From sequence record OR846000.1: a stretch of 1,372 bases of DNA; one strand, given 5' to 3'. This DNA comes from a phage. The position numbers were made by a program, and so were the translations under genes. The stretch's first letter is position 1. Each line of letters opens with the position of its first letter. Below are positions 1 to 1,372 of the stretch, piece after piece. A model generated the notes under the pieces. The model made no database searches. It was not told the origin of the DNA and was given only the letters and a program-made list of their open reading frames with translations.

Positions 1-214
1 CTCCCTGATATATGCCATGTGGATGATCATTGATAAATTGATGTGGGGAAACCCTGTTCCTGGTTATCCTTCGCTTATGACCGCGATTCTCTTCTTAGGC
101 GGCATCCAGCTTATCGGCATAGGCATCATGGGTGAATATATCGGACGCGTTTACACGGAGGTAAAGCAAAGGCCTCGCTATATCGTGAAAAACAAAAAAA
201 CAATGATGGAATAA
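1..214 (+). CDS. gtrB: C-terminal end of a bactoprenol glucosyltransferase (GtrB-like, family-2 glycosyltransferase); 5'-partial, CDS continues upstream of the window
   Basis: The reading frame is open from position 2 (SLIYA precedes the track's Met at 17) to the TAA stop at 212-214, so the ATG at 17 is internal, not the true start. The translation ...[54 protein letters not shown] matches the characteristic C-terminal membrane anchor and GEYIGR(V/I)Y...RP.Y motif of GtrB/ArnC-type polyprenyl-phosphate glycosyltransferases. This is recognised from memory, not from a database search. Confidence 0.85.
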
Positions 215-229
215 TGATGGAATAATGAT
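203..229 (+). repeat. Perfect 11-bp tandem direct repeat (unit ATGATGGAATA, two full copies plus a 5-bp partial third) spanning the gtrB stop codon and the downstream start codon
   Basis: Read directly: 203-213 ATGATGGAATA, 214-224 ATGATGGAATA, 225-229 ATGAT. The gtrB stop TAA (212-214) is built from the end of copy 1 plus the first base of copy 2; the downstream ATG (225-227) is the first three bases of the partial third copy. Confidence 0.9.
216..221 (+). promoter_or_regulatory. Possible weak Shine-Dalgarno-like element (GATGGA) for the downstream gene; translation probably coupled to gtrB termination
   Basis: A GGA at 219-221 lies 3 nt upstream of ATG 225 and 12 nt upstream of ATG 234. 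The match to AGGAGG is poor and the spacing is not ideal for either start. The 10-nt gap between the gtrB stop and the next ATG suggests co-transcription and coupling rather than an independent strong RBS. Confidence 0.3.
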
Positions 230-1372
230 TACTATGCTCAAGATATTACCGAAAACGGCGATGATACTACTGGCTTTTTTGGCCATTTTTCTTATTGAAT
301 GGTATACCCCCATTCACTCTGATGATTACCGCTATTACCTTTTAGGAATTTCGCCGGAATCACATTTTCATCATTATATGACCTGGAGTGGCAGGATTAT
401 AGCTGATTACACCAGCGCACTTATCCTGTATACACGTTCTCAACTCGTGTATTCCATCAGCGCTGCCGTTTCGACACTGGTATTTTGTTATTTCATTGTG
501 AAGACACCCTCAGGTACATTACGCTGGAATAAATCCGACTACTTATTATTCCCACTAATATTCTTCACTTACTGGATTTCGAACCCGAATTTGGGTCAAA
601 CCACTTTCTGGATCGTTGGTGCTGCGAATTATTTGTGGACGAATCTGTTCGTTGTTGCATGGCTGTTCTTCTTTTACACCATAACAATAAAAAACAGTAA
701 AGCGATCAGCCCGTGGGTTGCATTACTAAGCTTTATGGCAGGCTGTTCCAATGAAAGCGTCTCACCTTTCGTCTCGCTTATTTCTGTTCTGGCCATTGCA
801 TACGAGTTATGGCAAAACAAATCTGTTTCGCGCAATAAGATAGTTTATAGTCTCTGTGCAATCGCAGGTTCATGCGTATTGATACTTTCTCCGGGCAATT
901 TCATCCGCGCCAGCGGCAAAGAATTCTGGTATGGAAGGCCGATTTTTGAACGTATTTTCATTCACTTAACAGAACGCGTTCATAACCATCTGGCGCTGAT
1001 CTGGATAGCTTATGTTGTTTTGTTATTGCTGGTCTTACTGGTCATATTCAATAAGCAGATTCGCGCCAAAATTGATAAAACGTCCCTTATCTGCGCTGCG
1101 TTAGTCGTATGTATAGGTATTAGCACTTCCTTAATTATGTTCGCGTCGCCGTCCTACCCCGATCGGGTTATGAACGGTACGTTTATGTTTTTCCTTTTAG
1201 CTATCTCCTTCATCGCTTACGCCCTGTTGAAAAGTGGCGTTAAGGCTGGAGTCGTCGGCGTAACTGCCGTGACTGTCCTCTGTGGTATCGTATTCCTTTG
1301 GTCCTATTCATTGATGCTTAACGGTTATAAAAAAACGGCCGGACAGGAAATCGTAAGACAAAAAATCATTAC
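225..1372 (+). CDS. Polytopic inner-membrane glycosyltransferase, most likely the serotype-specific O-antigen glucosyltransferase of a gtr cluster (GtrC / Gtr type-specific, GT-C-like); 3'-partial, continues beyond the window
   Basis: Hand translation in the frame of ATG 225 gives 382 sense codons with no stop to the window end (last complete codon 1368-1370). The protein begins MITMLKILPKTAMILLAFLAIFLIEWYTPIHSDDYRYYLLGISPESHFHHYMTWSGRIIADY... and contains about 10-11 hydrophobic segments of 16-25 residues separated by short loops (for example aa 11-26, 73-91, 106-118, 127-151, 181-196, 205-221, 254-275, 286-306, 318-335, 340-361). Its position immediately downstream of gtrB in the same orientation is the canonical gtrA-gtrB-gtr(type) arrangement. 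The start is uncertain: ATG 225, ATG 234 or ATG 261 are all in frame; 225 is the first ATG after the in-frame stop at 204-206. Family assignment is by synteny and architecture, not by a recognised named homolog. Confidence 0.7.
   Translation, partial: MITMLKILPKTAMILLAFLAIFLIEWYTPIHSDDYRYYLLGISPESHFHHYMTWSGRIIADYTSALILYTRSQLVYSISAAVSTLVFCYFIVKTPSGTLRWNKSDYLLFPLIFFTYWISNPNLGQTTFWIVGAANYLWTNLFVVAWLFFFYTITIKNSKAISPWVALLSFMAGCSNESVSPFVSLISVLAIAYELWQNKSVSRNKIVYSLCAIAGSCVLILSPGNFIRASGKEFWYGRPIFERIFIHLTERVHNHLALIWIAYVVLLLLVLLVIFNKQIRAKIDKTSLICAALVVCIGISTSLIMFASPSYPDRVMNGTFMFFLLAISFIAYALLKSGVKAGVVGVTAVTVLCGIVFLWSYSLMLNGYKKTAGQEIVRQKII

Follow-up and report, generated by a model that had tools for sequence, protein, structure and literature searches.

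The window, a 1,372-nt stretch of phage record OR846000.1 read on one strand from 5' to 3', holds the 3' end of gtrB together with the 5' three quarters of gtrC, both from the Salmonella gtr LT2_II cassette (GtrC family IV). Two open frames lie on the plus strand. The first, in frame 2, runs without interruption from base 2 to the TAA at 212-214 (70 codons), and the second starts with the ATG at 225 and has no stop before the window ends (382 codons). Both are far longer than expected by chance at 41-45% GC. The features are as follows.

2-214, plus strand: gtrB 3' end, the last 70 codons and the TAA stop (212-214)
202-229, no strand assigned: 11-bp tandem repeat, unit AATGATGGAAT, 2.5 copies
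214-225, plus strand: mini-ORF ATG ATG GAA TAA (M-M-E-stop), read directly from the sequence
225-1372, plus strand: 5' part of gtrC (GtrC family IV; LT2 tag STM4204 in the SARB27 notes), 382 of 515 codons
321-326, plus strand: Asp33-Asp34 codons GAT GAT (HSDDY motif), invariant in 58 homologues

At the DNA level the window is 99.9% identical to OR850955, a contig derived from S. Kentucky, and 98.3% identical to S. Infantis SARB27, whose annotation of the locus cross-references STM4206, STM4205, and STM4204. The gtr LT2_II operon was defined as STM4204-4206 (Broadbent et al. 2010, PMC2909390), and gtr STM_II was assigned to GtrC family IV (Davies et al. 2013, PMC3688519). The gene order gtrA-gtrB-gtrC and the position inside a tail remnant are the same in gtr LT2_II/gtr STM_II and in the window locus. 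This is a well-known Salmonella sugar-modification cassette, and the window is largely ordinary. Cassettes of this type alter Salmonella surface glycans and so bear on phage susceptibility, serotyping, and the design of O-antigen vaccines. The window confirms the locus and brings no further biology, except for a GT-C fold and Asp33-Asp34 assignment and a minor junction polymorphism.

An earlier note, made from the letters of the window, had recognized a gtrABC-type cluster of the kind carried in Shigella, Salmonella, and E. coli. The Salmonella part of that claim held, whereas no close E. coli counterpart was found and the Shigella Gtr(type) Pfam family was not matched. Megablast of the window against 5,426 complete E. 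coli genomes returned nothing, and a more distant search of E. coli genomes reached only the tail of yfdH (gtrB), at 67-70% identity, so the identity of the locus as an E. coli or Shigella gtr cluster was rejected. The E. coli genes 3' of the matched yfdH belong to other families, annotated as a glucosyltransferase domain or DUF6311. A scan of GTDB genomes turned up relatives, none above 76% identity, but not a near-identical locus from S. enterica, and the Salmonella distribution described here therefore rests on phage-collection, IMG/VR, metagenome, and NCBI contigs. Rfam identified no RNA element in the window; its one hit, Chlorobi-1, was a chance match below threshold (17.9 bits, gathering score 50).

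The gtrB part of the window codes for the transmembrane hairpin region at the C-terminus of a bactoprenol (undecaprenyl-phosphate) glucosyltransferase of the GT2 type. The GtrB-like C-terminus seen in the earlier note was borne out by profile searches, in which the 70-aa tail matches phrog_841 (E 4e-37) and phrog_34335 (E 4e-42); it also matches the NCBIfam models PgfS and ArnC (positions 241-310). Full-length GtrB and GtrC were taken from contig L002, which is 99.9% identical to the window and whose 309-aa GtrB ends in exactly the 70-aa tail of the window. The full-length protein aligns end to end with Synechocystis GtrB (sll0501, PDB 5EKP; residues 2-302) at 305 bits, compared with only 150 bits to ArnC and 60 to DPMS. 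Directly 5' of gtrB in L002, and overlapping its start, is a gene for a 124-aa GtrA (519-893), just where gtrA had been predicted. Its counterpart in L083 matches PF04138, and the gene 5' of gtrB in L001 is annotated "GtrA-like protein". Since gtrA falls outside the window, its presence is read from these three near-identical loci.

The gtrC part of the window spans essentially the entire membrane-embedded GT-C domain and ends before the C-terminal β-sandwich domain. The gtrC peptide of the window matches Pfam PF19528 (DUF6056) over profile positions 10-382 of 442 (E 4.5e-58; 197.5 bits, cutoff 27); full-length GtrC is 515 aa in L002. PF19528 now carries the name GT_STM0557_N. DUF6056 was the sole match in a Pfam scan at E up to 1, in which GtrC did not match the Shigella-type Gtr(type) family, which we take to be Glucos_trans_II. 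A GtrC profile run against PDB sequences gave no meaningful match (best E 0.58), so a fold comparison was needed. The predicted structure (pLDDT 94.7, pTM 0.93) is helix-rich and multi-span, with a C-terminal β-sandwich at residues 390-515, and the multi-span fold is superimposable on solved GT-C enzymes. Judged by this model, GtrC is a GT-C glycosyltransferase and not a transporter. The large multi-helix membrane protein that the earlier note had placed directly 3' of gtrB on the same strand is family IV GtrC, and the note's view of the window as the junction of gtrB with a type-specific transferase stands, with GtrB profiles on one side and a PF19528 GT-C protein on the other.

Across 58 homologues that reach down to 18% identity, nine GtrC residues do not vary: D33, D34, R57, W129, N135, Y136, E177, R228, and R314. 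In the model, D33 and D34 come immediately after helix 10-26, in the loop that follows transmembrane helix 1. PMT, ArnT, and PglB carry acidic motifs in loop 1, and by analogy Asp33-Asp34 is predicted to be the catalytic acidic pair. The GT-C fold would place both residues on the periplasmic side; topology was taken from the fold because a simple Kyte-Doolittle and charge count of GtrC gave no clean topology. The GtrC protein cluster contains 3227 member sequences. Among loci from other species, gtrB directly precedes gtrC in 16 of 18 with an identity of 45% or above and in 17 of 43 with 28-45%. This recurrent gtrA/gtrB adjacency is indirect evidence that GtrC may use a polyprenyl-phosphate-linked sugar donor.

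Several known systems resemble this one. GtrC family III (STM0557, the O:12-2 glucosyltransferase) and the GtrC of epsilon34 (family VIII, 31.5% identity over 81% of the family IV protein) share both PF19528 and the gtrA-gtrB-gtrC operon logic with family IV, and O-antigen modification has been reported for both systems (Davies 2013, PMC3688519). According to the literature, family III is Dam/OxyR phase-variable and lies beside a tRNA in SPI-16, whereas family IV is constitutive and lies in a tail module. Shigella flexneri GtrI, II, IV, V, and X and E. coli K-12 YfdI are likewise multi-span products of the third gene in gtrA-gtrB-gtr(type), and they use the same Und-P-glucose relay (PMC3259042), but no sequence relationship to family IV GtrC was detectable in Pfam at E up to 1. 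The GT-C transferases Pmt1/2/4, ArnT, AftB, ALG12, and STT3/PglB share only 8-11% identity with GtrC, whose soluble domain, unlike theirs, is a small C-terminal β-sandwich.

Based on these relationships, the three proteins would form a relay across the membrane. GtrB, a GT2 enzyme at the cytoplasmic face, would transfer glucose from UDP-glucose to undecaprenyl phosphate, as its strong homology to 5EKP suggests. GtrA, by family membership, would then flip Und-P-glucose to the periplasmic face. We infer the chemistry of the last step, in which GtrC, with Asp33-Asp34 after TM1 and a C-terminal periplasmic β-sandwich, would transfer the sugar to a periplasmic glycan acceptor. The transferred sugar is assumed to be glucose on the sole basis that GtrB is a close GtrB homologue.

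The relay leaves the acceptor to be considered. The earlier note had assigned the locus to O-antigen glucosylation and serotype conversion, an assignment drawn from homology that published assays do not support. Family IV gave no LPS ladder shift from either its native promoter or pTac, in Typhimurium and in Infantis, and is one of two families without an assigned activity (Davies 2013, PMC3688519). We found no later functional assignment of family IV in the literature after Davies 2013. The "gtrC2" of recent papers is the family II acetyltransferase OafB, a different gene from family IV gtrC. The gtr LT2_II operon is described as lacking the OxyR site, having one GATC, and not being phase-variable (Broadbent 2010, PMC2909390; Davies 2013, PMC3688519), and its non-phase-variable promoter is active at 185 Miller units (Broadbent 2010, PMC2909390). 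L002 likewise has one GATC in the interval from the gpV stop to the start of gtrA, and the Dam/OxyR phase-variation signature of four GATC sites and OxyR half-sites is absent upstream of gtrA. Expression of the cassette is constitutive instead of phase-variable. A promoter and terminator scan of L002 returned fewer sites than shuffled controls, and a terminator-like hairpin inside gtrC (L002 1876-1890) was set aside as probably due to chance.

Serogroups B, C1, C2, and E have differing O-units and nearly identical family IV GtrC proteins (Davies 2013, PMC3688519), and in our comparison GtrC was at least 99% identical in Infantis, Kentucky, and Senftenberg contexts. Since these O-units differ and constitutive expression gives no ladder shift, the target is most likely something other than every O-antigen repeat, a preference based on the negative gel assay and the serogroup distribution. 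More likely is a single-site or serogroup-independent acceptor, for instance the LPS core, an O-unit in first or terminal position, or another undecaprenyl-linked glycan, e.g. ECA. The lack of an LPS shift in two serovars also means that GtrC could be inactive there or need a missing acceptor. Taken as a whole, an explanation that combines the locus identity, the relay mechanism, a non-repeat acceptor, acquisition as a moron, and a junction duplication is, in our judgment, very probably the best one. Family IV is found in several serovars and is both constitutive and under constraint.

The strongest competitor is a classic serotype-converting module, in which family IV GtrC glucosylates an O-antigen repeat sugar and the antigenic or phage-receptor change was missed by the gel, for example if stoichiometry was low or the modification left migration unaltered. 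The O-units of groups B, C1, C2, and E all contain mannose (Kauffmann-White O-antigen structures), which is consistent with conversion across these groups. The operon architecture is identical to that of proven O-antigen converters, and the Pfam family of GtrC includes the protein of converting phage epsilon34 and takes its name from STM0557; STM0557-0559 adds glucose α-1,4 to the O-antigen galactose according to a report cited in Davies 2013 (PMC3688519). However, families I, III, V, and VI shift visibly in the same assay in which family IV, tested in two serogroups, does not shift even from pTac, and family IV is not limited to serogroups with related O-units (Davies 2013, PMC3688519). The near-identity of GtrC across the Infantis, Kentucky, and Senftenberg contexts also argues against a repeat sugar as the target, and the literature we found links no O-factor to the gtr LT2_II locus. 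We therefore regard conversion of this kind as possible but doubtful, and favor the non-repeat acceptor.

The genomic setting of the cassette is informative as well. In related loci it sits between the baseplate genes V and W, with a GC content of 42-46% compared to 56-60% in the flanks, and a 52-nt direct repeat (94% identical) is present on both sides. The cassette is a low-GC moron, acquired horizontally and carried among the baseplate genes of a headless P2/Mu-like tail cluster, which agrees with the earlier description of the window as accessory, prophage-associated DNA. An integrase, an attachment site, and a tRNA gene had also been expected nearby, but none of the three lies there; the deposited annotation of the 31-kb L001 includes no integrase and ARAGORN found no tRNA in it. 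Locus 4 is given as a P2 integration site alongside tRNA genes (Davies 2013, PMC3688519), and none of these tRNA genes was seen within ~15 kb of the cassette. The surrounding cluster has genes for a complete contractile tail, for lysis, and for a Mor-type activator (LT2 tag STM4219 in the SARB27 notes), with no head, terminase, or integrase genes in the deposited annotation. Its tail genes have pN/pS values of 0.06-0.09, indicating strong purifying selection.

The insertion between V and W, the 52-nt repeats, the headless cluster, and the low pN/pS of the tail genes together raise another idea, that the family IV cassette is not a serotype converter but the self-protection (receptor-masking) module of a tailocin-like particle. 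If so, GtrC would glucosylate a serogroup-independent envelope glycan (LPS core, ECA) that is the receptor of the tail, and receptor masking would account for both the constitutive expression and the lack of an O-antigen ladder shift. The literature searched describes no Salmonella tailocin specific to the gtr LT2_II locus, and we consider this proposal improbable.

About as improbable is that the cassette is an inactive relic, riding in a decaying prophage remnant and modifying nothing now. The LPS gels without a phenotype and a premature stop in the family IV gtrC of S. Choleraesuis (Davies 2013, PMC3688519) point in that direction, as do single-base gaps in gtrA, gtrB, and gtrC of the IMG/VR contig L084 and two chimeric, internally deleted gtrB alleles (L086 and L089). 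On the other hand, pN/pS is 0.19 for gtrC and 0.16 for gtrB, and internal stops are absent from the 8 and 7 gap-free alleles compared for the two genes, respectively. All family-invariant residues are kept, including D33 and D34, the protein cluster is large, and the promoter is active (Broadbent 2010, PMC2909390). For the favored reading of a working cassette with a non-repeat acceptor, the insertion in a conserved headless tail cluster, the flanking repeats, and the recombinant gtrB alleles provide handles for an acceptor search.

Finally, a lipid A modification operon, with ArnC or another GT2 enzyme upstream and an unrelated transporter downstream, is extremely unlikely: the 70-aa tail, a fragment, matches NCBIfam ArnC weakly (E 5e-11, 42 bits against a cutoff of 529) and MFS transporters are among the Foldseek matches of GtrC, but full-length GtrB scores twice as high to 5EKP as to ArnC, its neighbours are gtrA (rather than arnB) and gtrC with no arn genes nearby, and the GT-C fold comparison rules out an unrelated transporter.

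The sole unusual feature within the window is at the gtrB/gtrC junction, where Tandem Repeats Finder reported a period of 11 with 2.5 copies at 100% match. Relative to most Salmonella alleles, the window has an extra 11-bp unit at 215-225. The alignment to SARB27 has an 11-base gap opposite this unit, which is also missing in L083 and in all seven IMG/VR and metagenome matches (each 42 nt, no insert). Altogether, the duplication is present in two of the 11 compared sequences and missing in nine. We expect this allele to be confined to a lineage related to Kentucky. The excerpts of Broadbent 2010 and Davies 2013 on gtr LT2_II do not mention the duplication, the V/W position, or the 52-nt repeat. 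Unduplicated alleles have the start of gtrC directly overlapping the stop of gtrB (L001 15214; L083 6001). In the window, the 11-bp duplication by slippage places a 3-codon mini-ORF between the two. At both ends the mini-ORF lies across a TAATG: its ATG overlaps the stop of gtrB, and its stop overlaps the ATG of gtrC. From this arrangement, translational coupling of gtrB and gtrC is probably kept despite the duplication, though possibly weakened.

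Both genes of the window lie on the plus strand, which bears out the earlier note's reading of a glycosyltransferase C-terminus followed in the same orientation by a long hydrophobic protein:

Base 2 to the TAA at 212-214, plus strand: 3' end of gtrB (frame 2 open), encoding a 70-aa tail
ATG at 225 to the last window base, plus strand: 5' part of gtrC (MITMLKILPK...), 382 open codons
321-326, plus strand: codons of the invariant pair Asp33-Asp34, directly after the first GtrC helix

The minus strand of the window has no ORF longer than 72 aa, and window GC is 41-45%. The GtrB tail matches the GtrB families phrog_841 (E 4e-37) and phrog_34335 (E 4e-42) and, at their C-terminal positions, the PgfS and ArnC models of NCBIfam. 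For the gtrC ORF, Pfam gives only DUF6056 (E 4.5e-58, 197 bits vs a cutoff of 27), renamed GT_STM0557_N in current Pfam. By megablast the window has no match in E. coli and two in Salmonella, namely S. Infantis SARB27 (98.3%) and OR850955 (99.9%), a 4.2-kb contig from a serovar Kentucky phage preparation. The latter, which differs from the window at a single base (position 383, synonymous), carries gtrA (listed at 124 aa, TTG start) and complete gtrB (309 aa) and gtrC (515 aa). The SARB27 annotation links its three cassette genes to the LT2 tags STM4206, STM4205, and STM4204.

The window locus is the published gtr LT2_II, or GtrC family IV, and was already known. Broadbent et al. 2010 (PMC2909390) named STM4204-4206 'gtr LT2_II', and the promoter data in that paper describe a single GATC, no OxyR site, 185 Miller units, and no phase variation. 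OR850955 agrees: its stretch from the gpV stop to the start of gtrA has one GATC. The operon is listed as 'GtrC family IV' at 'locus 4' by Davies et al. 2013 (PMC3688519). According to that paper, no member of this family has the phase-variation signature, no activity is assigned, and constitutive expression from the chromosome left the LPS ladder of S. Typhimurium and S. Infantis unshifted. We found no later paper assigning a family IV function; the 'gtrC2' of recent papers is the family II acetyltransferase OafB, not family IV gtrC. It is very probable that the cassette is gtr LT2_II and operates as a three-step relay, in which GtrB would make Und-P-glucose, GtrA would flip it across the membrane, and GtrC, a GT-C enzyme, would transfer the sugar in the periplasm.

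The earlier note had assigned the junction of gtrB and a type-specific transferase to O-antigen glucosylation, that is, serotype conversion. We lean instead toward an acceptor other than every O-repeat, such as the core, a single site, or the candidate glycan ECA, because a near-identical GtrC serves serogroups with differing O-units and because the LPS gel assay described by Davies et al. 2013 (PMC3688519), which shows shifts for families I, III, V, and VI, is blank for family IV. Classic O-unit glucosylation overlooked by the gel assay is possible, though we doubt it. The GtrC of phage epsilon34, which is O-antigen-converting, is a 31.5% relative. The locus itself is ordinary and documented, and the acceptor is a modest, genuine question that the window does not make more testable.

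Partnership was scored in 80 loci from other species as a same-strand GtrB homologue directly upstream of the GtrC relative. Where identity to this GtrC is at least 45%, 16 of 18 loci have this arrangement; the counts are 17 of 43 at 28-45% and 1 of 19 below 28%. GtrA usually precedes the upstream GtrB. Among gap-free, near-identical Salmonella alleles, both genes are intact, with 18 synonymous and 12 non-synonymous polymorphic codons in gtrC (n=8, pN/pS 0.19) and 7 and 4 in gtrB (n=7, pN/pS 0.16). Intact frames and synonymous-biased polymorphism indicate that selection maintains both genes, and they argue against the view of the cassette as an inactive relic, which is improbable. The IMG/VR contig L084 has single-base gaps relative to the reference in gtrA, gtrB, and gtrC; these may reflect either errors in sequencing or decay of the allele. 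Two more DUF6056 paralogues, 58-60% identical to the window GtrC, are encoded by Salmonella enterica strain s1 (CP191473.1); one lies downstream of gtrA and gtrB and adjoins tRNA-Ser and tRNA-Asn, and the other has neither gene adjacent.

Searching a large protein collection gave 117 relatives of GtrC, every one DUF6056. An identical protein in the collection (P0001, named from serovar Senftenberg) stands for a cluster with 3227 members. The AlphaFold2 model from an alignment of 58 relatives is very confident (mean pLDDT 94.7, pTM 0.93), with an all-helical membrane domain at residues 1-387 and a beta-sandwich at 390-515; the window takes in essentially the whole GT-C domain without the C-terminal beta-sandwich. 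Fold-comparison scores were 16.8 for Pmt4, 15.3 for Pmt2, 15.0 for both AftB and ALG12, 13.1 for STT3B, 12.8 for ArnT, and 10.3 for PglB, in a set that also included ALG3, ALG6, ALG9, PimE, AftA, AftD, and DPY19. Sixteen residues are invariant across the 58 relatives, down to 18% identity: P29, D33, D34, Y51, W54, G56, R57, W129, G132, N135, Y136, E177, G215, G224, R228, and R314. PMT, ArnT, and PglB have catalytic acidic residues at the corresponding place after the first helix, and Asp33-Asp34 would by analogy be their counterpart. We are confident in the modelled GT-C fold with its Asp33-Asp34 pair, which the present analysis adds. Foldseek is concordant, its MFS transporter matches having probability 0.1-0.2 and TM-score ~0.1. 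Full-length GtrB scores 305 bits against 5EKP, the solved Synechocystis GtrB, vs 150 bits against ArnC, which rules out ArnC, the alternative named in the earlier note, as the upstream gene; an ArnC/transporter reading of the two genes is refuted and retains practically no probability.

In SARB27 (L001) and NCBI contig L083, the gene order is sheath, tube, tape measure, U, X, D, V, small ORF, gtrA, gtrB, and gtrC, followed by W (gp25-like), J, I, tail fibre, and fibre-assembly. On the left, adjoining lysC, are lysis genes (membrane protein, SLT transglycosylase) and an activator of the Mor family. The gtrABC cassette is a compositional island (GC 42-46% vs 56-60% in the tail genes), spanning 3.15 kb between direct repeats and inserted between baseplate genes V and W. 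The 52-nt repeat is 94% identical (L001 13644-13695 and 16793-16844), and its core (CCCGGTAAGCGCAGAAGCGCCACCGGG), hairpin-forming and REP-like, is found in OR850955 at 269-299 and 3430-3460. The repeat looks like a scar or target of cassette insertion. The V/W/J neighbours are Salmonella-specific, and cassette homologues occur without them in Citrobacter, Leclercia, Enterobacter, Kosakonia, and others. These boundaries and the synteny statistics are additions of the present analysis. The proposal of accessory, prophage-associated DNA holds for the low-GC island in a tail cluster, but the integrase, attachment site, and tRNA arrangement does not: the deposited annotation of the L001/L083 tail cluster includes no head, terminase, or integrase genes, and the 31 kb of L001 are free of tRNA genes by ARAGORN.

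The cluster (L001 ~2860-21640, lysC side to fibre-assembly genes; also L083) holds a complete contractile-tail gene set. Its organisation is tailocin-like, and we found no account of such an organisation at this locus. Across 5-9 contigs, V, W, J, and I are free of stop codons and have pN/pS of 0.06-0.09. We give little credence to the cassette being a receptor-masking or immunity module for this headless cluster. The cassette is several-fold less diverse at synonymous sites (pS 0.03-0.05) than the adjacent tail genes (pS 0.15-0.24; L001, L083, L085, L087, L088), which suggests that the cassette spread or was homogenised more recently than the surrounding module. In the IMG/VR contigs L086 (1-2425) and L089, family IV gtrC follows a different gtrA and a chimeric 285-aa gtrB, ~24 residues shorter, that changes to family IV sequence near gtrB nucleotide 692; upstream is an integrase fragment. 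The arrangement is evidence for recombination inside gtrB, with exchange of the cassette's left flank.

The sole unusual feature of the window, also added here, is a duplication at the gtrB-gtrC junction:

202-229: 11-nt tandem repeat, 2.5 perfect copies (Tandem Repeats Finder); extra unit at 215-225
214-225, plus strand: mini-ORF ATG ATG GAA TAA (M-M-E-stop), created by the duplication

Among 11 sequences, only the window and the S. Kentucky-derived OR850955 have the extra unit. SARB27 has one unit fewer, as does L083, which encodes an identical GtrC, and all junction matches in six IMG/VR contigs and one metagenome contig are 42 nt, that is, without the insert. Slippage between AATGAT microrepeats accounts for the duplication. 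In alleles without it, the gtrB TAA overlaps the gtrC ATG as TAATG; with it, the mini-ORF ATG overlaps the gtrB stop and its own stop overlaps the gtrC start, giving TAATG on both sides. Both ORFs are left intact and the 11 nt just 5' of the gtrC ATG are unaltered, and we expect the effect on gtrB-gtrC translational coupling to be modest at most.
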